A stretch of 64,000 nt of DNA from an uncultured Alphaproteobacteria bacterium (GCA_934254585.1 CAKQLF010000001.1:245250-309249), one strand, 5' to 3'. Shown: positions 22,356 through 36,114, numbered from the stretch's first letter. Made by a program: numbers and translations. Notes: generated from the sequence alone by a model not told the origin.

Positions 22356-22430
22356 GGTCCCATCGTCTAATGGTTAGGACATCACCCTTTCACGGTGGCA
22401 ATATGGGTTCGAGTCCCGTTGGGATCACCA
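22356..22430 (+). tRNA. tRNA-Glu (anticodon UUC)
   Basis: 75-nt cloverleaf. Acceptor GGTCCCA/TGGGATC, anticodon loop CTTTCAC, T-loop GGTTCGAGTCC, encoded CCA. The overlapping ORF 22395..22805 is spurious. Confidence 0.85.
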
Positions 22431-22543
22431 ATACAAACGGCAGGCAGTAAAAAGCCTGCTTTTTCTTTTATTTCCAAGTACTTATGCGAGTTCGAATCTT
22501 TGTTTTTTGAAAACTGCGATTTTGGGAAGTTTTTCCGAACTCG
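22424..22543. repeat. Direct repeat copy 0 (tRNA 3' end plus flank; att-like), tRNA-proximal
   Basis: atcaccaatacaaacggcagg...ctttatttccaag...cgagttcgaa...tttgaaaactgcgattttggg...ccgaactcg. Contains a terminator hairpin (22436-22463) and a cgagttcg/cgaactcg inverted repeat. Confidence 0.7.
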
Positions 22544-25287: not shown

Positions 25288-26397
25288 TTAATCATTTTCA
25301 TAATCAATTTCTTCAAAACGCAAATTTGTATCATCAATATAATATGTGACATACTTAATCTTGCAAATATAAGTTTCATTAAATTTCTTTAAGGCTTCAA
25401 TACTTTTTAGGTATCTTTTTGTTTTCCTGTTTGTTTTTTTAACAATAATTGTAGGCTCTATTATATCTGGAATCGGCTGAAAATATTGTTTAATCCAACG
25501 TAAATATCTTCCGATTTGCTCTGTTATCTCGGGATAAATAGTTGTTGATTTCAATTCCATAGGTATTAATATTCTTTTATTAGTTTCTGCATTTGTAGCC
25601 ATTAACATAATATCAATCCGCCGCATACCAACGCCACACATTACTTCATTACCTAACCACTCCATTCTGCTATTATTTAAAAAGATTTCCTTCAACTCTG
25701 AATCAGCATCAATAGACTGAGTTATATATGTTTGCAAAAAAGCTTCATAAGCGTAACTGGTATATATCAATTTGCGTTTCACATTGATAGGGTGTGAAAA
25801 TTCTAAGTTATACTGGCTTCGCACACCCTCTATTATGGTTTTACTGTTTTGATCATATGAAAATTGCGAAAAAGCAAGAGGTATATTATCATTTTTAGAG
25901 CTAATCATATCAATTAATCGTTTTGACTCAGCTGGAGTTATCATTGTATTACCCCTATTACCATCTAGCTTTCTATAAATCAACGACCATAAAATATCAT
26001 TAGGTTTTTCAACTCCATCTAAATTATCCAAAGCTTCCCATTCAGTTACTCCTTTGGCGAAAACTATATCAGGCTCTAATAAAACACGAAAAGTAAGTTT
26101 TTTAGACAATTCTGGTGTTGCTTGGGATTTGGGATCAATAAAGCATCTATCTTTTGCTTGAAATACGCCATAAAAATGACCTTTACCCAATTCTCCAGTA
26201 CAATAGAAAATAATTTTATCTCCTTTGCGTATTCGCGCAGAATCCGCCATCATACCAACCAAATTTTGGGCAACCTTTTGATTTTCCGCTGTATCATTAA
26301 ATTCTACATCTAAATCTCTAGCTCCTGTGCCAGCAAACATATACTTTAAATGTAACGGGAAAGTTTTTTCATTTACAATAAAAACATGTGTGGTCAT
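25288..26397 (-). CDS. Putative restriction endonuclease (C-terminal PD-(D/E)xK-like motif) with N-terminal PUA/EVE-like barrel
   Basis: 369 aa, last gene of the MTase operon. RIDIML...IPMELK fits D...ExK. N-terminal GDKIIFY...GHFYGVFQ resembles PUA-like/EVE folds. Not recognisably DpnII/MboI-like. Confidence 0.4.
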   Translation of the reverse strand: MTTHVFIVNEKTFPLHLKYMFAGTGARDLDVEFNDTAENQKVAQNLVGMMADSARIRKGDKIIFYCTGELGKGHFYGVFQAKDRCFIDPKSQATPELSKKLTFRVLLEPDIVFAKGVTEWEALDNLDGVEKPNDILWSLIYRKLDGNRGNTMITPAESKRLIDMISSKNDNIPLAFSQFSYDQNSKTIIEGVRSQYNLEFSHPINVKRKLIYTSYAYEAFLQTYITQSIDADSELKEIFLNNSRMEWLGNEVMCGVGMRRIDIMLMATNAETNKRILIPMELKSTTIYPEITEQIGRYLRWIKQYFQPIPDIIEPTIIVKKTNRKTKRYLKSIEALKKFNETYICKIKYVTYYIDDTNLRFEEIDYEND

Positions 26398-26408
26398 AGT
26401 CTATATGC

Positions 26409-27209
26409 TCATTTCCTAAATAAAAATATATACTCGTGCTTAAACAAATACAAACCATTAGATAATGCTCTATACCGCCATAAAGCTTGCTGATTTTGTT
26501 TACCTTTAGTTGTGTCAAAATTTTTAACAATTATTGATTTAAGTTTCAGTTTTTCTCTCTGTGCTGCTTGCATTGCGTAAAAACCTAATGGAACAATTTC
26601 ACCATTAGCATACTTATCACCAATGACAATTACAAGGTATCTCCCTTTTGCTAAAACCTCTACACTTTTCTTTATTATTAGCTGAAACCTCTCAATAAAA
26701 TCTACCAATGTTTTGGAATTACTAAGGTTATCCTCATCTTGTCCAAATTTTATAATATCCCAATAAGGAGGATGCAAGATAACGAGCTGCACCTCTTTAA
26801 GATTATGATTATTTAATTCTTGCATATAGTTAATCTTTAAACTATCGCCACATACAAGAGAGGCTTCTGCTTTACAACCTTCATCTAAAAATCTTGCAGC
26901 ATTATCAAGTGCTTGTTGAGTTTGAAGACATGTATCTTGATTTATTTCAAAACCAAGAGCATTACGATTAAGTCGCCTTGCTTCAATTAAGGTTGTTCCT
27001 CCTCCTGCAAATGGATCTAAAACCCAATCCCCAGCTTTTGTATATCTCATAATAAACTGGTAAGGAATCTGAGGAACAAAATTTCCCCAAAAACCATTTT
27101 TATGTCCATGCTCATTATCTCTTTTATCAATAAGCCATAATGAATCAGTCCAGATATCTGTTAGATTTTTCCAATTATGTAAATCAAGCTCATTTATCTT
27201 ATTCATCAA
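26409..27209 (-). CDS. DNA N6-adenine/N4-cytosine methyltransferase (N6_N4_Mtase family), second MTase of the locus
   Basis: Motif I DPFAGGGTT and motif IV HPPY. Its start overlaps the Dam-like MTase stop by 4 nt. Confidence 0.7.
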   Translation of the reverse strand: MMNKINELDLHNWKNLTDIWTDSLWLIDKRDNEHGHKNGFWGNFVPQIPYQFIMRYTKAGDWVLDPFAGGGTTLIEARRLNRNALGFEINQDTCLQTQQALDNAARFLDEGCKAEASLVCGDSLKINYMQELNNHNLKEVQLVILHPPYWDIIKFGQDEDNLSNSKTLVDFIERFQLIIKKSVEVLAKGRYLVIVIGDKYANGEIVPLGFYAMQAAQREKLKLKSIIVKNFDTTKGKQNQQALWRYRALSNGLYLFKHEYIFLFRK

Positions 27210-28195
27210 TTTTTCTTCAGTATATGTAAATACTCAATAGTTTTATCAGCTAAATAACTCCTATTAGCATCAGCTTTAAAGCGTTGATAATCTTTTGTTG
27301 CTAAGGAATATTCACCATATTTGTTCATTGTAGATTTTATATCATCAACAGACATCAAACCTTCATTATTATAACTTAAAAAAATATATTTAAATTTGGC
27401 ATTTTTTATCAAATCATCAAAACTATCTAAAACTTTATCTCTTTTACAATATAATGAACGACTATAATCTCTGAGCCCTGTTTTACCTTTAGGCTGAAAT
27501 TTATCATACAAAGCTATTGTATTAAGTAAATGATAATTGGCTCCATATTGTCGTTCATTATACGGAGGATCCAGATACAAAATATCACCTTGAATATGTT
27601 TAATAAGTTGATTGGCATCCTCGCAATATACTTGGTGGTCATGGTCATTTATCTGATATAAAGCAGGCTCCAAATTTAATGATTTTTGAGCAGATTTCTT
27701 TAATTTTTTCAAGAATGCACCATATACAGATGCCGTATTTGCAACTCTATCTGCGCTTTCCAATAATGATGCAAGTAAAAAGTAATATTGATTATCTGAA
27801 ATTTTGGCTGTATCTTTCCATACTTGTATTTTATTTCTTATTGCATCAATTTTTTTGCCATTTTCATCAGAAAAATATTGCCGCCCAGAACCACTTCCTA
27901 AACAATAATTATTAAAGATAAAACCTTCTACACCTTCAAGGCTCATCAAATCAGATATTAACTTCTGGTAATCCATAGCCAAATGATTGCCTATATAGTT
28001 ACGATTTAATATATAGCTATATCGTTCAATATCATTAGAAATTATCTGTTTTGTTTTTAATTTGAAATAACGACCAACGATACCTGTTCCTGCAAATAAA
28101 TCACAAAAAACACATGATTTAATATCATTTACGACACGAGATATATTATCATCTAAAAAAGAAAGTAATTTATATTTTGATCCGATATAGTTCAT
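27206..28195 (-). CDS. Dam-family (D12 class, alpha) N6-adenine DNA methyltransferase
   Basis: MNYIGSKYKLL (Dam N-terminal), FAGTG motif I and LDPPY motif IV. Arrangement is like DpnM/MboIA. Confidence 0.8.
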   Translation of the reverse strand: MNYIGSKYKLLSFLDDNISRVVNDIKSCVFCDLFAGTGIVGRYFKLKTKQIISNDIERYSYILNRNYIGNHLAMDYQKLISDLMSLEGVEGFIFNNYCLGSGSGRQYFSDENGKKIDAIRNKIQVWKDTAKISDNQYYFLLASLLESADRVANTASVYGAFLKKLKKSAQKSLNLEPALYQINDHDHQVYCEDANQLIKHIQGDILYLDPPYNERQYGANYHLLNTIALYDKFQPKGKTGLRDYSRSLYCKRDKVLDSFDDLIKNAKFKYIFLSYNNEGLMSVDDIKSTMNKYGEYSLATKDYQRFKADANRSYLADKTIEYLHILKKN

Positions 28196-28258
28196 TGTTT
28201 ACCTTAATTTAAAATTCGATTTAATTTACATATAACGCATAAAAAAATCATTTGTAAA

Positions 28259-28897
28259 TCAAATTTCTCCTTTTCGAGCTTTTTTAATCACTTCTTTTCT
28301 GTATTCTACGGGATCATATTGATAGCATCCTTCACATCCGTAGTCATGCAACGATTTTCCACCTTTATAATAAGCCATTGGATTTCCGTCTAAGTTACGA
28401 GCATCCCAACGCTCTCCAGTTTCCATGCATTTTTTACAAATTTGCCTTTTGGCATCATTTGCAGCTTTTGTAAGAGGCTGAAAGTCATCAATTGTTTGGG
28501 TGCTTAAATCCGAAACGCGAAAATTGTTCTTTCTACCATCTTTGTGATCAATTTCAATTTTGATATTTTCAGAATTACCCCTAATTCCAAGCATTACGCA
28601 GTTTTTATCTTTATAATATTCTTTTATATCTGAACGAATTGTTTGATTAAATGACGCATCAGTATTAAGACCGATTGTTCTAACGGCATCAATAGAATTC
28701 CCCGACGTTTGAGTTTTATCAAATTCCAGCTTATACCTTTTAGCCAAAGTAGACTCTTTACGACACCAACTTCCTCCATTGCCAAGTTTTAATTCCCTGT
28801 ATTCTCCAACGAATTCTGCAACAGAAACCCAGCGGCTATATCCCTGTTCATTTGGTGATGCCAATTCTAAAAATAGTTCAGTTTTTGTTTTTTTCAT
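28259..28897 (-). CDS. Putative HNH/zinc-finger nuclease (candidate restriction or nicking endonuclease)
   Basis: 212 aa. EIDHKDGRKNN (HNH-like D-H...N-N) plus CxxC...CxxC pairs (ICKKC, GCEGC). First gene of the apparent R-M operon. Confidence 0.35.
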   Translation of the reverse strand: MKKTKTELFLELASPNEQGYSRWVSVAEFVGEYRELKLGNGGSWCRKESTLAKRYKLEFDKTQTSGNSIDAVRTIGLNTDASFNQTIRSDIKEYYKDKNCVMLGIRGNSENIKIEIDHKDGRKNNFRVSDLSTQTIDDFQPLTKAANDAKRQICKKCMETGERWDARNLDGNPMAYYKGGKSLHDYGCEGCYQYDPVEYRKEVIKKARKGEI

Positions 28898-29420
28898 AAA
28901 ATGACTCCTTTATTGAAAAGCTTATGTAAATAAAAACAAAAAAACAAGAAATCTTATTTTGTTATCTGCAACTTTTATCGTTTCAACCTTTAACTTGGCA
29001 ATGTCAAAGGTTACAAAATTTCATTTTTAATAAAATTTTTCAAATAATCTCAAAAAACTTTAGTAGAAATTCGCAAGCTTCATATTCTATAAAATATGAC
29101 AAATGCGTATAATCAACTCAAAAATGAGTTATCAATTCTCTATCCCGATGTTACGGATATTGAATTAAAAGAAATGGCAAGCAATCTGATTGATTTTTAT
29201 ACAACGGCTGTAAAAGCCGTTTTAGAAGATGATACAAAAGAATTTGTTACTGATGACAAAAACTCTTCTTCATAACCTTATTTATTTTGTAAATTAGGTT
29301 AATTGTTTGAAAAATCAGCAAAATATTAGCAATAAAGTCGTCAGAAACAGAAAATAACCGCTTACATTCCCAAAATAACGCGACATAATATTATTATGTA
29401 AAAACAAAGGAGTAATGAAT

Positions 29421-31004
29421 ATGGCTAAGAAATACAGATATGCTAAAGCTGCACCATGCGTTCAGGCTGTCATTTTTGCACGCGTATCTACCAAGGAACA
29501 AGAACCAGGGGGTTCTCTAAAGGCTCAGAAAGAAGCAATGGAAGATTATTGTAACAAAAAGGGACTTCCTATTGTTCAGAAATATAAAGCGGTTGAAAGT
29601 TCCACCAATGGCAAACGTACAAAATTCAATGAAATGTTAGACTTTGTAAAAAAGCAGAAACGCAAAACCGCGATTGTTGTCCATTGTATTGACCGTTTTC
29701 AAAGACGCTTCAATGAATGTGTGGAAGTTGAAGAAATATTATTAGATGACAAAACTGACCTGCATTTTTGCAAAGAAAGGTTAATTCTCACTAAAAATAG
29801 TCCGTCTTCTGATATTATGCGTTGGGATATGGGCATTTTATCCGGCAAAATGTATGTGGCAAATCTGCGAGATAATGTTAACAGAGGTATGAATTATAAC
29901 TGGTCGATTGGAAAATATCAGACAAAGGCTCCGGTTGGGTATTTGAATATTAACAAAGACATTATTGTTGATTCAGAACGTGCACCTTTAGTTAAAAAGA
30001 TGTTTGAGATGTATGCGACCGGACAATATTCCGTAAAACGCTTGCAAGAATTTGCCTCGGAAATGAATTTATGTTCTTCTCATTCTAAAACAAATAAACC
30101 ATTAGGACGAGAAACCATATATGCGATGTTAAAAAATCCGTTTTATTATGGTGAAATGGTAATCCGTGGTGAAATTATGCCACATGCTTATGAACCTCTT
30201 ATTTCAAAATCATTATATGATAAAGTTCAAGAAGTGCGTTCTGGTGGTAAAATACATACAAAAATGCGAGAATATGCCGGAATTCCTTTTGTGTTTCGCG
30301 GATTGATAAAATGTGCGGAATGTGACGGCACCATCTCATCAGAACAGCATTTTAAGAAAAGTGGCAGAAAATATACTTATTTGCGTTGTACACACTCAAA
30401 CGGTTGTTGTCATCAAGGTCTGGTTAGCGAAAACCTTTTATTACAACAACTTGATGATGAAGTTTTTAGTAAACTAAGACTTAGCAAGAATATTTTAGAG
30501 CCTCTGAAAAAATGCGTGCAGAAAAAATTGATTGAAGAATCCGAAGCAAATACCATTGTAAAACGCAAGATCTCCGTGGAATTAAACAATCTTGAAGCTA
30601 AAGAGAGACGGGTTAAGGATTCATTTTTTGACGGAGACATAACCAGAGAGGAATGGCAGGAAGAAAAAGCTATTATTGCCACCAAGAGGGAAGAATTACA
30701 ACGGACAGCTAAAAAATATGCCGATATTAGCAAAGATATTCAAGTAACTGTTAATGAAATTTTAGATATTGCGGCAACTGTTTCCGATATTATGAAAAAA
30801 GCTGATTCTACTCAGCAAAATAAATTGTTAAGTCTTATGCTCTCAGAATGTTATCTTGACGGTCAGAGACTAATTTATACGTTGAGAAAACCTTTTGACA
30901 AGCTGATTAACCTCAAAAATGCCAGTACCTGGTTTGATTTTGATAAATCAGACATCAAGGAATACAAAAACAGGACAGATAAAGTGGAGAGGTATAAGAA
31001 TTGA
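29421..31004 (+). CDS. Large serine recombinase (resolvase catalytic domain, recombinase domain, zinc ribbon, coiled coil)
   Basis: AVIFARVSTKEQE catalytic-serine motif. Cys-rich zinc ribbon (CAECDG...CTHSNGCC) and a C-terminal coiled coil. Opposite strand to the rest of the island. Start at 29421 has an aaggag RBS. Confidence 0.8.
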   Translation: MAKKYRYAKAAPCVQAVIFARVSTKEQEPGGSLKAQKEAMEDYCNKKGLPIVQKYKAVESSTNGKRTKFNEMLDFVKKQKRKTAIVVHCIDRFQRRFNECVEVEEILLDDKTDLHFCKERLILTKNSPSSDIMRWDMGILSGKMYVANLRDNVNRGMNYNWSIGKYQTKAPVGYLNINKDIIVDSERAPLVKKMFEMYATGQYSVKRLQEFASEMNLCSSHSKTNKPLGRETIYAMLKNPFYYGEMVIRGEIMPHAYEPLISKSLYDKVQEVRSGGKIHTKMREYAGIPFVFRGLIKCAECDGTISSEQHFKKSGRKYTYLRCTHSNGCCHQGLVSENLLLQQLDDEVFSKLRLSKNILEPLKKCVQKKLIEESEANTIVKRKISVELNNLEAKERRVKDSFFDGDITREEWQEEKAIIATKREELQRTAKKYADISKDIQVTVNEILDIAATVSDIMKKADSTQQNKLLSLMLSECYLDGQRLIYTLRKPFDKLINLKNASTWFDFDKSDIKEYKNRTDKVERYKN

Positions 31005-31101: not shown

Positions 31102-32475
31102 TTAGTTTTCAATTAGATATGAAGAAATCACGCGTATCCAAGATGACAAATACAAGATTTCAATACCTAATTTTTCTTCTAATGTATCTTTAGCTTGTTG
31201 TAATTGCTTCATGATGTCATTAATATTATGCTCTTTTATGAAGTTATATTCTTTTTCTTTATTATATAAATAATGTCTCAAGCACAGTTCTTTGGCTTCA
31301 GTTGTAGGATATGACATCATTACACTATACTCTTGTCCATTTTTACTTTTTCGTATATTGGTCACAGTATTTATAATGCCAAATTCTTGAATATCGCTTT
31401 CAGGGTCATTTTTTATTATTTCTTTACACTGAGGACAATCACAAACTTTTTCAAAATATATACTTTTGCTATTAAGCCATCCTTCATCTAATAACAGCTG
31501 AATTATATTTCTAAAATGAAAGCGTTTGTGAGCTATAGGTAAATAAAATTTAGAAATAGGGACGCCTCCTCCTACGGGGAAAACACTTCTAGATTCTCCA
31601 TATTCCATACCGTGACAACAAGCCTGCAACAATCCCAAATTAATAAGTATTAGTGAAAAATAACTGCCGTATAATTGTGAAACTGGAATGTTTTTTTCTT
31701 TAAATTTTACTAACAAGTATAAATAATTGTTTAGTAAAACATCTCCAGCATCTTTTTCATCAAACGCATCAATCCACAATAAAATTTCACAGGGATTAAC
31801 TTTTGAGTATTCATCAACTAAAAGGTTAAGCTTGTCCTTATCCAACAAAATGCTTGAATTAATAACAAGTTGTGCAGAAATAGAAGGATGATAAGTTTTA
31901 GACAATTCAATCGCTTTAGTATTAATATGTAACCAGTGATTGAAATTATTATCAGATAAATAAAAATAAGGAGCTATTAAACAGCAAGGAGCTACGCATA
32001 AACTGTTTTCATCATTTCCTAAAATATACTCTATGTATTCTTTATATTCATTTTTTTCTTCTAATACTTCTTTTTTTATAGTATTTTGCTGAAATTCAAT
32101 AACTTTTTGACATAGTTCTTTTAAAAAGGTGTCATTATCATCGAAGTCTGTTAACTCAATTGACCGCTTTTTACATGAAATTATATCTTTTAATGTGTCA
32201 CCGTAAAAGCTGAGAAGCTTTTCAATAGATTTTTTCAAATTACCATCAGATCCAATCAAACCTTGATAGTATTGGAATGCATACGTTTGAGGGTCAATTA
32301 TGAAATCTTTTTTACATAATTCATTGCTTATAAATTTGGAAATAGAATTAGTACAATGTGCAAAGATATTTGCATTTAGTATTAAAACATCATATGAATC
32401 ATTAAAACTTGAAACATATTTTTTTTCTGCATTGGTACCAAAGCGTAATAAATGTGTTCCTTTAATCATACCCAA
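31102..32475 (-). CDS. Cys-rich protein with tRNA-guanine transglycosylase (TGT/DpdA)-like motifs; 4th gene of candidate defence operon
   Basis: 457 aa. LNANIFAH (compare TGT LGNTFHL), DPQTYAFQ (compare DSGGFQ), IDAFDE, VGGGVP, a CDCPQC zinc knuckle (compare E. coli Tgt CDCYTC) and a downstream RHYL. Assignment is by motif only. Confidence 0.3.
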   Translation of the reverse strand: MGMIKGTHLLRFGTNAEKKYVSSFNDSYDVLILNANIFAHCTNSISKFISNELCKKDFIIDPQTYAFQYYQGLIGSDGNLKKSIEKLLSFYGDTLKDIISCKKRSIELTDFDDNDTFLKELCQKVIEFQQNTIKKEVLEEKNEYKEYIEYILGNDENSLCVAPCCLIAPYFYLSDNNFNHWLHINTKAIELSKTYHPSISAQLVINSSILLDKDKLNLLVDEYSKVNPCEILLWIDAFDEKDAGDVLLNNYLYLLVKFKEKNIPVSQLYGSYFSLILINLGLLQACCHGMEYGESRSVFPVGGGVPISKFYLPIAHKRFHFRNIIQLLLDEGWLNSKSIYFEKVCDCPQCKEIIKNDPESDIQEFGIINTVTNIRKSKNGQEYSVMMSYPTTEAKELCLRHYLYNKEKEYNFIKEHNINDIMKQLQQAKDTLEEKLGIEILYLSSWIRVISSYLIEN

Positions 32476-32885
32476 ACTCCATTGATTCTGTTTTTAAAAG
32501 CTTCATTTAACCAAATTTTTCCAACCTTCCATACTTTTCTATTATGTTTTGCAGGGTAAATGGTTTCTATTAATTTGTCACTATCCTTATCAAAGAAAAC
32601 AAGACCAACATCAGTTTTTTCCATTGCTTTTGATAATTTTTCGGGTATTTTTTTCTTAGGTTTAGGGATACATATATATACTTCATTTGTGCCTAAAAAA
32701 TGACTCGATGCTTGCTCTATGGCTCGTTTCCAATTATCAATTTTAAATTCAATAGCAATTAATTGGTTTTTTTTAAGGTAAACAAGATCTATAGACTGTT
32801 GCATAAAAGGAACCTCCGTTACAACTTGAATTCCTTTTTTTCTTAAATAATCTTGAACTTTATTTACCATCTCAATTTCGTACAT
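32466..32885 (-). CDS. Small PD-(D/E)xK-like nuclease-fold protein; 3rd gene of operon
   Basis: 139 aa. TEVPF...IDLVYL...IAIEFK gives an E-P...D...ExK pattern like restriction-endonuclease/Hjc-like folds. Confidence 0.35.
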   Translation of the reverse strand: MYEIEMVNKVQDYLRKKGIQVVTEVPFMQQSIDLVYLKKNQLIAIEFKIDNWKRAIEQASSHFLGTNEVYICIPKPKKKIPEKLSKAMEKTDVGLVFFDKDSDKLIETIYPAKHNRKVWKVGKIWLNEAFKNRINGVWV

Positions 32886-32895
32886 AATCCAGTCC

Positions 32896-33423
32896 TTATA
32901 TTATGAAATCTGCTTGTCTTTTTATTTCAGTAGATAAATGCCTAAATCCCATATATGTACCCCATATTCTACAAATGCAGTATAGTAAATAAAGAAAAAT
33001 TATAATTATTAACCCATTAAAGATATCTAAATATTTTTCTTGCGCAAAGACTTTTCCATATTTACTGCATAAGAGCCAAGCATTTTTTATAGCTGCAGTA
33101 CCAAAAATTAAGATAGCGGAAACTATTAACCTTGAAGTGTATTTTGCATATTTATTGATATGTTTCTTTAAATTTATTTTATTCTCAAAAGCTACAGACA
33201 TTTGCTTGATGAATAAAGAGAAGGATGTGCTCATACTATCGTCATATACTAGATTATTGTGTATTTTATTTTCTATTTTTTCAATAAATTCGGCAAGAAG
33301 CGAAGTTTTCGTCAATAAAAGTGAATTTAAAATTTGATTAGCTTTATCATCAAATTTAGTAAATATAGGGAAAATAATTCCCAGTAGAACACCTGCAACT
33401 GCTAAAATATCCTCAAATCCCAT
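32896..33423 (-). CDS. Small multi-pass membrane protein (candidate toxin/effector); 2nd gene of operon
   Basis: 175 aa with 3-4 hydrophobic helices. Sits 3 nt downstream of the Panacea-domain gene. Confidence 0.4.
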   Translation of the reverse strand: MGFEDILAVAGVLLGIIFPIFTKFDDKANQILNSLLLTKTSLLAEFIEKIENKIHNNLVYDDSMSTSFSLFIKQMSVAFENKINLKKHINKYAKYTSRLIVSAILIFGTAAIKNAWLLCSKYGKVFAQEKYLDIFNGLIIIIFLYLLYCICRIWGTYMGFRHLSTEIKRQADFII

Positions 33424-33426
33424 TAT

Positions 33427-34014
33427 TTAATAACCTTTCAATACTTTTTCTTTTATTTTTGATTTCTCAGTAAATTCCGGGTATTTAGTATATACATATC
33501 GCAAAATATCACGCAACTTTGCCTTATTGTATCTGGCTTTAAATGCTGATAAAATTTCTTTTTGATTATTAGACAAGCTTTCATATTTATTCTTTTGCTG
33601 AATGAACTGAACTCCTTTGTCACTGATTTCAAAGCGTTCTAATGCATATTCAACAGGTTTTACATCTAATTCTTTTTCCGCATAATCATTAAATTCTGAA
33701 ATTTCTTCATAAGTTAAAATATCACTACTATTTGAATATGAAGTTGAGATAAAATCTATATTTTTTAAGAAATCAATATCTTTAAATGCTTTAATAGACA
33801 TTGGACCAAAATTCCAAGCGGTAAAGAAAAACAAATCATCACTATATTCCAGTGTATCTTCAGTAAATTTTTTTAAAATTTCTTTTTCAAAAATAAAAAG
33901 GAGTTTTGTTAATTTTGTCCGACCTTCTATAGCTTCGCGGAATTCTTTTGTATAACCGGGAGAATACAAAAGCAACATGATTATATCAACAGATGTTAAT
34001 TTTATTTTGGACAT
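33427..34014 (-). CDS. Panacea-domain (DUF4065/GepA-like) protein, candidate antitoxin; 1st gene of operon
   Basis: 195 aa. TKLTKLLFIF...FTAWNFGPMSIKAF matches the Panacea hallmark (T/N)KLQKLLY...AWxxGPV. Confidence 0.45.
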   Translation of the reverse strand: MSKIKLTSVDIIMLLLYSPGYTKEFREAIEGRTKLTKLLFIFEKEILKKFTEDTLEYSDDLFFFTAWNFGPMSIKAFKDIDFLKNIDFISTSYSNSSDILTYEEISEFNDYAEKELDVKPVEYALERFEISDKGVQFIQQKNKYESLSNNQKEILSAFKARYNKAKLRDILRYVYTKYPEFTEKSKIKEKVLKGY

Positions 34015-34123
34015 TGTAAAACCTTTACGAACTACTCTAATATATTATAATACAATTTATTCCTATCAAGTTAAGAAATAATAAATTAATTTGCACAGCT
34101 TTTAATCTTTTTAGCTCGGAAAC

Positions 34124-34245
34124 TGTGAGGTAAGCATCACCAATACAAACGGCAGGCATAAAAACCTGCCGTTTTGCTTTATTTTCCAAGCCTTTCAGCG
34201 AGTTCGAATGTTGTAAATTTGAAAATTGCGTTTTCGGTTTTTTGT
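34124..34245. repeat. Direct repeat copy 1 (att-like, tRNA 3' end plus terminator hairpin)
   Basis: gtgaggtaagcatcaccaatacaaacggcaggcataaaaacctgccgtttt...ctttattttccaagcctttcagcgagttcgaa...tttgaaaattgcgttttcgg. Near-identical to copies 0 and 2. Confidence 0.7.
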
Positions 34246-34264: not shown

Positions 34265-35080
34265 TCAACGTCGTATTCCTATGTCTCTTAAAGTTTGATT
34301 AACGATTTTATTAACATTATTTTGTTGTCTTTCCTTAGCAAAAAATCTATTTCCAGCTTTTACGCAATCCGGGCAAATCGGAGATAAGCCTTCTCTTTTG
34401 CAAGCTAATCTGGCTCTTGTTATATCGCTGAAATCTCCATCAACTCTTTGTTGCATAATACAAAGACCATCTTCGTCCGTACAATGAGTTCCATAAATAT
34501 CGGCAGAATTTTCCCTTCCTTCATAGGTGAGGCCTATTACATGGCCAAATTCATGCATTAATACAGTTTTGAAATTTTCACAATCAATGATGTTGCCAGA
34601 GTCGTCTGAAAATCTGCGGGCAGAAACGACACATCCAATTCCTTCATCTCCCAACCCGAAACAATAATTCATTTCTTGATTGGGATATAAATCATCTTTG
34701 GTAAGTAAAATTGTAAATTGCGGAATTTCTTTATTTGTTGGATCGGTCTGCATGGTTTGAAATAATGTGCTTGCATTTAATTGATTAGGACGACCGTCTA
34801 GGATAGCATCTCTTTTGGCATTTTCAATGTGCCAGCGTGTACTTTTATATGGAGCCAGATAAAGCTTGCCGTTTTCCGGATATATATATCCAGTGTCTTT
34901 CCATGCACCTAAATTCGTGATTGGATAATCATTTTTATATTGAGGAAAGCAAGCCATCAATTCTTTTATGGCTTCAACGGCTATTTGGTTTGCCTGAGGA
35001 TTGAGACCGTCTTGGCTGACAATAAATATATCTTTTTGCTTCATAAACGTTATCCCCCTCCTTAGTATAGAATATACCAT
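34265..35080 (-). CDS. Archaemetzincin-like zinc metalloprotease (peptidase M54-like)
   Basis: HEFGHVIGLTYE...HCTDEDGLCIM...CPDC fits the archaemetzincin signature HExxHxxGxxH + CxxxxCxM + CxxC. Confidence 0.6.
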   Translation of the reverse strand: MVYSILRRGITFMKQKDIFIVSQDGLNPQANQIAVEAIKELMACFPQYKNDYPITNLGAWKDTGYIYPENGKLYLAPYKSTRWHIENAKRDAILDGRPNQLNASTLFQTMQTDPTNKEIPQFTILLTKDDLYPNQEMNYCFGLGDEGIGCVVSARRFSDDSGNIIDCENFKTVLMHEFGHVIGLTYEGRENSADIYGTHCTDEDGLCIMQQRVDGDFSDITRARLACKREGLSPICPDCVKAGNRFFAKERQQNNVNKIVNQTLRDIGIRR

Positions 35081-35124
35081 AATTTTATGTAAAAAAAAAG
35101 AAGTTTCAGCTTGTGAAACATAAA

Positions 35125-35249
35125 TTAAGCATCACCAATACAAACGGCAGGTATAAAAAACTGCCGTTTTTCTTTATTTTCCAAGCCTTTCAGCGAGTTC
35201 GAAAGTCGTATTTTCGAAAACCGCTTTTTGGGAAGTTTTTACGAACTCG
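35125..35249. repeat. Direct repeat copy 2 (att-like)
   Basis: ttaagcatcaccaatacaaacggcaggtataaaaaactgccgttttt ctttattttccaagcctttcagcgagttcgaaag...ttttgggaagtttttacgaactcg. Overlaps the last ~22 codons of the 35190..35843 gene. Confidence 0.7.
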
Positions 35250-35843: not shown

Positions 35844-35925
35844 AGTAGTCTCCTAGTGATAATTATGATGCCTTTTGAACATATTATTTATTCATTAATA
35901 TATCATTAAACAGTAGCTCGTAATT

Positions 35926-35979
35926 TGTGAGTTAAGCATCACCAATACAAGCGGCAGGTATAAAAACCTGCCGTTTTTT
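35926..35979. repeat. Direct repeat copy 3 (truncated, att-like), followed by a strong GC hairpin 35992-36013
   Basis: tgtgagttaagcatcaccaatacaagcggcaggtataaaaacctgccgtttttt, then aaaaccccgcg ttaga cgcgggg ttt. Confidence 0.65.
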
Positions 35980-36114
35980 GTATAAAGAAAACCCCGCGTT
36001 AGACGCGGGGTTTAGTGTAGTTTATAGCGGTGAGTTTGACAAAGTGCTTCTAGTAATTACTTTAACACAAACTTTTTAGAAACTTAAAGCATAACCCCAC
36101 AAAATGCTACAGAC

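Follow-up and report, generated by a model that had tools for sequence, protein, structure and literature searches.

The DNA analysed here (the window) is a stretch of 64,000 nucleotides from an uncultured Alphaproteobacteria bacterium, with positions counted from its first letter. It contains a cassette of four minus-strand genes, g1 to g4, at one end of an integrated island. The features of the island and its surroundings are as follows.

22356-22430: tRNA-Glu.
22397-22525, 35104-35232 and 35911-36039: further copies of the att-like repeat listed last (repeat family D1, four copies in total).
26409-28897, minus strand: restriction-modification genes of the same island, encoding an IceA/NlaIII-like endonuclease, a Dam-class methyltransferase and an N6/N4 methyltransferase.
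29415-31004, plus strand: large serine recombinase with the Pfam domains Resolvase, Recombinase and Zn_ribbon_recom, convergent with g4.
31102-32469, minus strand: g4, 455 amino acids, a TGT-superfamily-like TIM barrel with a zinc site (CxCxxC...H) and, C-terminally, a long helical hairpin; the signature gene.
32466-32885, minus strand: g3, 139 amino acids, a predicted minimal PD-(D/E)xK nuclease, NucS/MmcB-like; invariant core.
32896-33423, minus strand: g2, 175 amino acids, with one N-terminal and two C-terminal transmembrane (TM) segments; variable effector slot, putative membrane-disrupting effector.
33427-34014, minus strand: g1, 195 amino acids, a Panacea/SocA-like winged-helix protein; invariant core, putative effector-neutralising or regulatory subunit.
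34015-34108, minus strand: leader and probable operon promoter, with sigma-70-like hexamers and a Shine-Dalgarno sequence (AAAGG) ahead of g1.
34109-34237: att-like repeat, comprising the tRNA-Glu 3' end and a terminator hairpin; island boundary.

The four open reading frames are packed as a single operon, as originally predicted, with a gap of 3 nt between g1 and g2, a gap of 10 nt between g2 and g3, and an overlap between g3 and g4. The length of g4 has to be revised. It had been given as 457 amino acids, starting from a TTG at 32475 (ORF 31102-32475), whereas the sequence makes the ATG at 32469 the most likely start and the TTG an alternative, because this ATG overlaps the g3 stop codon as ATGA and a 99%-identical database protein (P0001) is 455 amino acids long, exactly the length of g4 read from 32469. 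Database searching found many homologues for each of the four proteins. Promoter-like sites are present upstream of g1 at 34074-34042, and we treat these as weak evidence because the region contains no more of them than expected from shuffled sequence.

The large serine recombinase and att-like repeat between which the cassette had been placed were both found. Alignment of the repeat copies gives a common core, ATCACCAATACAAACGGCAGG...TGCCGTTTT, and the tRNA-Glu was the sole hit when the island was scanned against Rfam. The recombinase is likely to be the mobility gene of an island of approximately 11.7 kb (22.4-34.2 kb). The restriction-modification genes of the island (Pfam E-values of 1.6e-100 for ICEA, 6.8e-52 for MethyltransfD12 and 8.5e-26 for N6_N4_Mtase) are context, and lie outside the four-gene system.

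We then analysed the occurrence of the cassette in 80 species-representative genomes, seven viral contigs from IMG/VR and many metagenome contigs. Co-occurrence of the homologues had been fixed beforehand as the test on which the proposal of a module could fail, and it passed: g1, g3 and g4 occur together in 77 of the 80 genome loci, and the remaining three loci are cut by contig ends. The carriers among these genomes comprise Alphaproteobacteria, Melainabacteria, Planctomycetota, Verrucomicrobiota, CPR bacteria, Firmicutes, Bacteroidota, Spirochaetota and Archaea. All seven viral contigs carry the three genes, and the trio is also kept in metagenome contigs whose g4 is 61%, 45%, 32% or 31% identical to that of the window and whose flanks are unrelated. 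An uncultured alphaproteobacterial MAG from the gut carries a copy of the cassette that is 98% identical. At 50% identity the g4 family falls into about 1,081 clusters, from many phyla and both prokaryotic domains; its distribution is patchy and almost confined to uncultured lineages, although Moorella mulderi DSM 14980 and Caproicibacter fermentans EA1 are cultured carriers of the SIR2 class described below. A copy from a contig labelled E. coli is not matched in any of 5,426 complete E. coli genomes, and a tblastn search with g4 found no match among PLSDB plasmids or INPHARED phages.

The cassette travels with integrases. In the other copies the neighbouring genes are enriched in serine and tyrosine recombinases, restriction-modification genes and AAA_14/DUF4143 proteins; serine recombinases are the commonest immediate neighbours (8 of 129) and also flank the cassette on viral contigs, while in prophage copies the cassette occupies an integrase-proximal position. 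The defence-island signal among the neighbours is genuine, if heterogeneous, with 176 Pfam families represented among the 129 neighbours. The cassette is horizontally mobile, and is carried on integrase-bearing islands and prophages beside restriction-modification systems.

The slot occupied in the window by g2 behaves differently from the other three genes. g2 had been described as a multi-TM protein, and hydropathy predicts three TM segments in it, at residues 6-24, 99-117 and 132-150. In 38 loci there is a gap between g1 and g3, and in all 38 it holds an open reading frame of 155-207 amino acids, 37 of which have two or three predicted TM segments. These proteins evolve fast, and have no sequence conservation across the 38 loci. 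A further 38 loci lack the TM gene and carry a SIR2 gene 3' of g4, in which the GAGxS, NWD and HGS motifs are retained; in one class the resulting gene order is g4-SIR2-g1-g3, with g1 adjoining g3. No locus of either class contains both. The fourth slot is thus filled by mutually exclusive genes, encoding either a protein with two or three TM segments or a SIR2 NADase, each a putative effector. In the g4 tree, the SIR2 clades are scattered among the others. No conserved fifth gene was found in the SIR2-class loci, and a comparison of TM and SIR2 loci found almost no class-discriminating columns in g1, g3 or g4, and so gave no clue to the core protein that meets the effector; the ratio of between-class to within-class identity is 0.88-0.90, alike for all three. 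Because g1, g3 and g4 co-occur and the fourth gene alternates, we conclude that the cassette is a single system in which g1, g3 and g4 form a constant core and the effector can be exchanged. The original prediction had left open whether the genes were a single undescribed system or a toxin-antitoxin pair beside a separate pair; the former is supported by the co-occurrence of the core wherever the contig allows, while the latter fails in the 38 SIR2 loci, where g1 stays with g3 and g4 although there is no TM gene.

g1 had been assigned from a Panacea/DUF4065 hallmark. The motifs stand, with TKLTKLLF and WNFGP falling in invariant columns of the family, but the window protein itself scores below the Pfam cut-off for Panacea (PF13274; 20.7 bits against 25.7). 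Across the family, SocA_Panacea matches 20 of 43 members at E <= 0.01, the best at 5e-6, and the source records of some homologues call them SocA family or YwgA. The best fold match of g1 is DarG, the chain that binds DarT in the DarTG complex, and in PADLOC v2.0.0 it matches PDC-M19A, partially only. Panacea antitoxins are direct neutralisers of TM toxins and have also been proposed as sensors (PMC8832971; PMC10440598).

The nuclease-fold pattern noticed in g3 proved to be a family feature: across 80 sequences, conservation reaches 90% or more at E3, D33, E46, K48, A55, Q58 and G94, and the g3 profile aligns to the nuclease domain of NucS (PDB 2vld_A, E 0.006) with the E...D...ExK...Q catalytic motif in register. 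The protein carries the E...D...(D/E)xK core by which members of the PD-(D/E)xK superfamily are recognised, and on this sequence criterion we assign it there. Its Pfam matches are weak and confined to PD-(D/E)xK families, and those in PADLOC v2.0.0 are likewise weak, to the nuclease regions of Csx1, CARF-PDDEXK and SduA, from unrelated systems.

The hallmark of TGT and DpdA is a zinc site together with three Asp residues, which serve as general acid/base, in base recognition and as nucleophile. The suggestion that g4 is TGT-like holds for the CDCxxC zinc knuckle, which is invariant, and for the predicted barrel fold, but is matched by nothing at the level of sequence: g4 has no TGT match in Pfam or NCBIfam at E <= 1, its profile has no matches to PDB sequences at E <= 10, and there is no model for it in Pfam, NCBIfam or PADLOC v2.0.0. 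hhalign of g4 with E. coli TGT aligns the zinc knuckle only (CDCPQC to CDCYTC), at 0.8% probability. In a Foldseek search with the predicted structure, the highest TM-score is for ArcTGT (0.47), with weak E-values, none of them <= 1e-3; ranked by E-value, generic GH10 TIM barrels come first. The predicted barrel is thus closest to TGT structures, at weak E-values, and g4 looks like a TGT-superfamily fold, an assignment that leans on this weak similarity of a model. The zinc ligands C345-x-C347-xx-C350 ... H401 are invariant in two alignments (53 and 83 sequences) and form a CxCxxC...His site C-terminal to the barrel, as expected for the structural zinc; the spacing to the His is about 50 residues, compared with 22-25 in DpdA and TGT. 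Approximately 20 invariant residues lie on the catalytic face. When mapped by motif order, the three Asp residues that are invariant in TGT and DpdA leave a single evident counterpart: D61, with an aromatic residue at +4, resembles the general-acid motif, the invariant E294 may take the place of the nucleophile, and the expected site of the base-recognising Asp is PYF 169-171, with no conserved acid. Because deazaguanine genes are unlinked and the base-recognising Asp is not evident, g4 probably does not insert preQ0; a reader or glycosylase is likelier than a self-marking modifier.

A literature search found no paper describing the cassette, the nearest being Cap10, DpdA and BREX-related capture (BRC) systems, and no system listed in PADLOC v2.0.0 is matched by all its components (g2 has no match there at all). 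Dpd had been named as a possible relative. The resemblance holds only at the level of fold, and no preQ0 genes are linked anywhere, and the observation that preQ0 and DpdB/ParB-like genes are missing from the window extends to 96 loci: phmmer searches with E. coli QueC, QueD, QueE and TGT found nothing in these or in the 64-kb window. The cassette lacks the DpdB, DpdC, DpdD-K and preQ0 synthesis genes of Dpd, and DpdB, DpdC and preQ0 synthesis are its defining partners, so that membership is ruled out. Moreover, DpdA and g4 have no sequence-level similarity and differ in zinc spacing and Asp set, and only the cassette always comes with a Panacea-like protein and an effector of the SIR2 or TM type. 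Type IV CBASS is ruled out in the same way, by the lack of a QueC-like Cap9 and of a CD-NTase. Its Cap10 binds protein, has no zinc site and has a remodelled nucleic-acid surface, whereas g4 keeps the zinc site, and the other cassette genes encode a wHTH/Panacea protein, a TM or SIR2 protein and a PD-(D/E)xK protein. The absence of linked preQ0/QueC genes therefore separates the cassette from both.

The closest likeness of g1 and g2 is to PanAT: g1 has the TKLxKLLF and WxFGP hallmarks, and a small TM gene comes directly after it, as in validated membrane-depolarising PanT (PMC8832971). An autonomous two-gene PanAT module is nevertheless not what is found: g1 is always tied to g3 and g4, whether the TM gene is present or not, and SIR2 can replace that gene. 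Short prokaryotic Argonautes (SPARSA, SPARTA, SPARDA and TM variants) provide an analogy only, in that a nucleic-acid sensor is combined with interchangeable SIR2, TM or nuclease killers. There is no homology; the cassette has no Argonaute or APAZ, its candidate sensor is a TGT-fold protein, and it always includes a Panacea-like protein and a separate mini-nuclease. BRC with GNAT/TGT modules likewise has a TGT homologue in a predicted defence system without DpdB or DpdC, but its HerA/FtsK, PglZ, BrxC-like and STAND proteins are found neither in nor beside the cassette (PMC12839542).

On the basis of these comparisons, we lean towards the view that the four genes form one self-contained mobile system, most likely an abortive-infection type of defence against phages or other mobile elements. 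We propose that g4 would inspect nucleic acid, flipping a base into its TGT-like pocket, and that g3, which is translationally coupled to g4, would be its partner on that nucleic acid. Once a base or structure specific to infection is recognised, the hold of g1 on the effector, comparable to that of standalone Panacea antitoxins on TM toxins, would be released. The freed g2 would then depolarise the cell or, in the other class, SIR2 would deplete NAD+, and in either case the infection would be aborted. We note that g4 keeps its zinc subdomain as TGTs acting on nucleic acid do, and has an Asp-x3-aromatic motif like that of TGT and DpdA. We also note a weak point of the model, which does not account economically for a nuclease and a suicide effector together. 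More tentatively, the TGT superfamily may have in the g4 family a new branch that serves immunity as a sensor or enzyme, independently of 7-deazaguanine synthesis; it would read or excise a phage-specific base or structure with a NucS-like nuclease and fire TM or SIR2 suicide effectors via a Panacea-type switch.

The cassette could instead be an addiction or competition module, with several components acting as a toxin-antitoxin system to keep islands and prophages stable or to shut out rival elements, and with no primary anti-phage role. The Panacea-like g1 beside a TM protein, as in validated PanAT pairs, the patchy distribution, and the carriage of nearly all copies as cargo of integrase-bearing islands or prophages all fit this idea, which we consider unlikely: two genes suffice for a simple toxin-antitoxin system, which leaves unexplained why the nuclease and the TGT-like enzyme are strictly conserved and retain their active-site residues, and the swapping of SIR2 and TM effectors is typical of sensor-coupled immune systems. 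Furthermore, toxin-antitoxin and defence roles can coexist (PMC10440598).

Next in plausibility, and also improbable, is a restriction-modification system of the Dpd kind, in which g4 would mark host DNA as self by base exchange, g3 would cut unmodified DNA and g1 would be the controller. In its favour, a PD-(D/E)xK nuclease gene overlaps a TGT-like gene; the winged helix of g1 resembles that of many C-proteins and regulators, and restriction-modification systems are frequent neighbours. It conflicts with the lack of QueC, QueD, QueE and DpdB/ParB-like genes in the 96 loci and the 64-kb window, with a cassette of four genes only, with the single Asp evident in g4 out of the three invariant in TGT and DpdA, and with an obligatory SIR2 or TM effector that has no role in restriction-modification logic. 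The cassette also occurs in CPR bacteria, which to our knowledge generally lack queuosine precursor synthesis.

Lower still we would place the idea that the toxic effector is g4, which might for instance excise bases from tRNA or DNA and would be restrained by g1, with g3 and g2 or SIR2 as auxiliaries. TGT-fold enzymes do cleave N-glycosidic bonds in tRNA and DNA, some 20 residues on the catalytic face of g4 are invariant, and Panacea antitoxins neutralise very diverse toxins, but the obligatory second, interchangeable lethal effector is left unaccounted for. Finally, the juxtaposition of two independent modules, with g1-g2 as a PanAT-type pair and g3-g4 as enzymes unrelated to it, would suit the PanA-PanT likeness of the former and the gene overlap of the latter, but is very improbable and largely refuted by co-occurrence, since all 38 loci without g2 keep g1 with g3 and g4, the order g4-SIR2-g1-g3 puts g1 by g3 rather than by a TM gene, and the cassette is constant where its flanks vary.

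We know of only two routes by which the TGT family has entered immunity: DpdA, with its preQ0 mark on self DNA, and Cap10, with its deazaguanylated CD-NTase. Both depend on QueC-type chemistry. The cassette described here would add a third, much more divergent TGT branch, whose constant companions are a nuclease, a protein of the Panacea type and an exchangeable effector, with deazapurine genes unlinked. Though widespread, it may have been missed because it is almost confined to uncultured lineages and no copy turned up when complete E. coli genomes, PLSDB plasmids and GenBank phages were searched. If our favoured reading of the cassette as a defence system is right, g4 would represent a new class of sensor or enzyme in bacterial immunity, and g1 a concrete case for Panacea domains as switches rather than simple antitoxins. 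If the more specific proposal for the g4 family is also true, g4 would provide the first demonstrated case of abortive infection triggered by a TGT-fold protein, within a new and very broad defence system that spans bacteria, CPR and archaea and is possibly directed against phages with hypermodified guanines. As a defence system, the cassette may show how hosts have answered guanine-hypermodifying phages.

The original prediction placed four packed minus-strand ORFs in the window, and these were found exactly where it had put them:

33427-34014, minus strand: g1, ORF of 195 aa (Panacea/SocA-like protein)
32896-33423, minus strand: g2, ORF of 175 aa (TM protein)
32466-32885, minus strand: g3, ORF of 139 aa (PD-(D/E)xK-like protein)
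31102-32475, minus strand: g4, ORF (TGT-like protein) as originally predicted; start preferred here, ATG 32469

The gaps between g1 and g2 and between g2 and g3 are 3 and 10 nt respectively, and the junction sequence reads ATGA where the g3 stop overlaps the ATG at 32469. This ATG is taken as the g4 start because the resulting 455 aa match the length of P0001, a database protein 99% identical to g4. The operon is intact, with a local GC content of 27-30% compared with about 40% in the flanks.

The cassette is one system, composed of a fixed core of three genes (g1, g3 and g4) and an interchangeable fourth. Homologues of g4 at 61%, 45%, 32% and 31% identity lie in the same cassette of about 195/175/140/455-aa proteins within unrelated neighbourhoods. 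With each species represented by a single genome, a comparative scan gave 80 loci, from Alphaproteobacteria, Gastranaerophilales, Planctomycetota, Omnitrophota, Verrucomicrobiota, Bacteroidota, Spirochaetota, Acidobacteriota and Chloroflexota; from CPR bacteria (Parcubacteria, Saccharibacteria, Peribacteria); from Clostridia, including Moorella mulderi and Caproicibacter fermentans; and from archaea (Thermoplasmata, Bathyarchaeota). The locus L017, in an uncultured alphaproteobacterial MAG from a Hadza gut sample, is 98% identical to the window cassette. HMM searches of all ORFs showed 77 of the 80 loci to contain the whole core (g1, g3 and g4); the other three are cut through by contig ends.

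The loci follow two architectures. One is g1-TM-g3-g4, where an ORF of 155-207 aa fills the gap between g1 and g3 in all 38 loci checked, and has 2-3 predicted TM segments in 37 of them; no sequence conservation was found among these 38 gap ORFs. The other lacks the TM gene and has a SIR2 gene after g4, giving g1-g3-g4-SIR2 or the circular permutation g4-SIR2-g1-g3, at times with g3-g1 inverted. The SIR2 proteins retain the GAGxS, NWD and HGS motifs, and loci of this class have no conserved fifth gene. TM and SIR2 genes were never found in one locus (38 of each after removal of duplicates). When g4 is placed on a rough neighbour-joining tree, the SIR2 classes fall into several clades amid TM-class branches, which suggests repeated swapping of the fourth gene. 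Of the two readings originally offered, a single undescribed system is borne out by the conserved core and the alternation of TM and SIR2, while a toxin-antitoxin pair beside an unrelated enzyme pair is excluded, since the core stays constant as the fourth gene swaps.

In the loci L093 (5998-6819) and L094 (257-1110), from a Bathyarchaeota MAG and an Ignavibacteria MAG, g4 is truncated or in three short ORFs, and these are likely to be pseudogenes or assembly errors. The SIR2 gene of L064, a SIR2-class locus on a contig labelled Escherichia coli (CAVGNR010000002.1), is divided between two ORFs, a sign of a frameshift or an assembly error. Because this copy has no megablast match among 5,426 complete E. 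coli genomes, its contig is probably either mis-binned or very rare. The system was not found in complete E. coli genomes, PLSDB plasmids or GenBank phages.

Searches with the g4 protein against Pfam, NCBIfam, PADLOC and the sequences of the PDB gave no match, and neither Pfam nor NCBIfam nor PADLOC v2.0.0 has a model for it. Its family is large and uniform, consisting of 440-470-aa proteins, every one named 'hypothetical'; among 1.84 billion representatives it comprises 1,081 clusters at 50% identity with E <= 1e-3, and 547 with E <= 1e-30. AlphaFold2, given 53 homologues, produced a confident model (pLDDT 92.5, pTM 0.91), in which an eight-stranded barrel is accompanied by a helical insertion at roughly residues 70-160, a beta-hairpin, a segment rich in Cys and a C-terminal pair of long helices. 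Foldseek returned nothing at E <= 1e-3 for this model; xylanases came first by E-value and ArcTGT was best by TM-score (0.47).

A zinc site and three invariant aspartates are common to TGT and DpdA (PMC10164549). In g4, C345-x-C347-xx-C350 ... H401 is invariant in family alignments, and hhalign aligns the Cys motif, and nothing else, with the zinc motif of E. coli TGT. When the active site is mapped by strand order rather than by superposition, the invariant D61 and the aromatic residue four positions on (IDPQT[Y/H]) are reminiscent of the general-acid/stacking motif of TGT/DpdA, the invariant E294 (EYGESR) is at the position expected for the nucleophile, and no conserved acid is found in the alignment where the base-recognition residue is expected. 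Cap10 has lost its zinc site and has a remodelled nucleic-acid surface, whereas g4 keeps the site, which favours nucleic acid as its substrate. Within the TGT superfamily, g4 seems to represent a new branch, and it is the signature gene of the system. DpdA, Cap10 and BRC systems are the nearest published cases, but their partners are entirely different from those of the cassette; membership of Dpd or type IV CBASS is excluded, as the defining partners are absent. Full-text literature searches found no published description of the system.

In g3, residues E3, D33, E46-x-K48 and Q58 are conserved across 80 sequences, and these motifs align in profile comparison with the NucS/EndoMS nuclease domain (E 0.006). 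Weaker Pfam and PADLOC matches are all to PD-(D/E)xK families. The Pfam SocA_Panacea match of the window g1 is under the cut-off; 20 of 43 family members match (best 5e-6), and homologues are in part labelled SocA family or YwgA in source databases. The match of g1 to the PADLOC candidate PDC-M19A is partial only. Hydropathy predicts three TM segments in g2, one N-terminal and two C-terminal.

The window cassette forms one end of a low-GC island of about 11.7 kb, whose cargo also includes a DUF3768 gene and a large serine recombinase convergent with g4:

22356-22430: tRNA-Glu, island boundary
22397-22525, 34109-34237, 35104-35232, 35911-36039: four copies of a repeat (~129 nt) of the tRNA-Glu 3' end plus terminator hairpin
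25288-26397: unannotated ORF of 369 aa, just past the RM genes
26409-28897, minus strand: complete-looking type II RM system, with an IceA/NlaIII-like endonuclease (ICEA, 1.6e-100), a Dam-class MTase and an N6/N4 MTase

The copy at 34109-34237 bounds the island opposite the tRNA. Serial integration at one att site is suggested, because the four copies delimit the island and two tandem single-gene islets of ~1 kb. The first islet holds a lone 271-aa ORF (34265-35080, minus strand) with HEFGHVIG...HC(x5)CxM...CPDC, a pattern known from archaemetzincin-type metalloproteases; it has no Pfam match at E <= 1e-3.

In other genomes, the genes most often found directly beside the cassette are serine recombinases (8/129), tyrosine integrases, AAA_14/DUF4143 ATPases (PADLOC PDC-S01) and RM genes. 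The remainder are highly diverse, as expected of a self-contained mobile cassette. In two unrelated lineages (loci L001-L004, 4931-6241; L010-L012, 1203-2348) the cassette has the ATPase directly upstream, and DUF3768 and a small resolvase occur near the cassette both in L001-L004 and in the window. In an Opitutales MAG (L009/L026, 2004-15126), a SIR2-class cassette, with an additional 150-aa ORF bearing a C-terminal TM anchor after SIR2, is nested within a larger cluster of SNF2 helicase, DUF4391, and then an N6_N4 MTase and a ResIII/RE_endonuc protein. In seven IMG/VR contigs the complete system has integrases, a tail protein and replication genes beside it; such an integrase-adjacent site is the usual place of prophage-borne defence cargo. 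On two viral contigs (L103, 1677-2714; L104, 1-1026), the cassette is preceded at about 1 kb by a reverse-transcriptase-like gene (PHROG 2825/1423), which may belong to a neighbouring retron or DRT defence system.

Abortive-infection systems have an effector slot whose signature is that a membrane protein and a SIR2 NADase exclude each other, and from this exclusivity in the cassette we infer that the fourth gene is such a slot. Standalone Panacea antitoxins directly neutralise TM toxins (PMC8832971), and Panacea antitoxins have been proposed as sensors (PMC10440598). In the best model, drawn from the exclusivity and this precedent, g4 and g3 would inspect or process nucleic acid, g1 would keep the effector in check, and infection would free it (g2 in the window, SIR2 in the other class). 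The model does not explain why one system would need both a nuclease and a suicide effector. No homologues of QueC, QueD, QueE or canonical TGT were found in any of the 96 loci or in the whole window, and CPR bacteria are for the most part not known to make queuosine precursors. Together, the absent deazapurine genes, the occurrence in CPR and the missing base-recognition Asp argue that g4 is more likely a reader or glycosylase than a preQ0 insertase. A role in countering phages that carry modified guanines is tempting, if speculative. The system would belong among modular sensor-effector defence or TA-like systems, with an apparently new TGT-superfamily branch as its signature gene.
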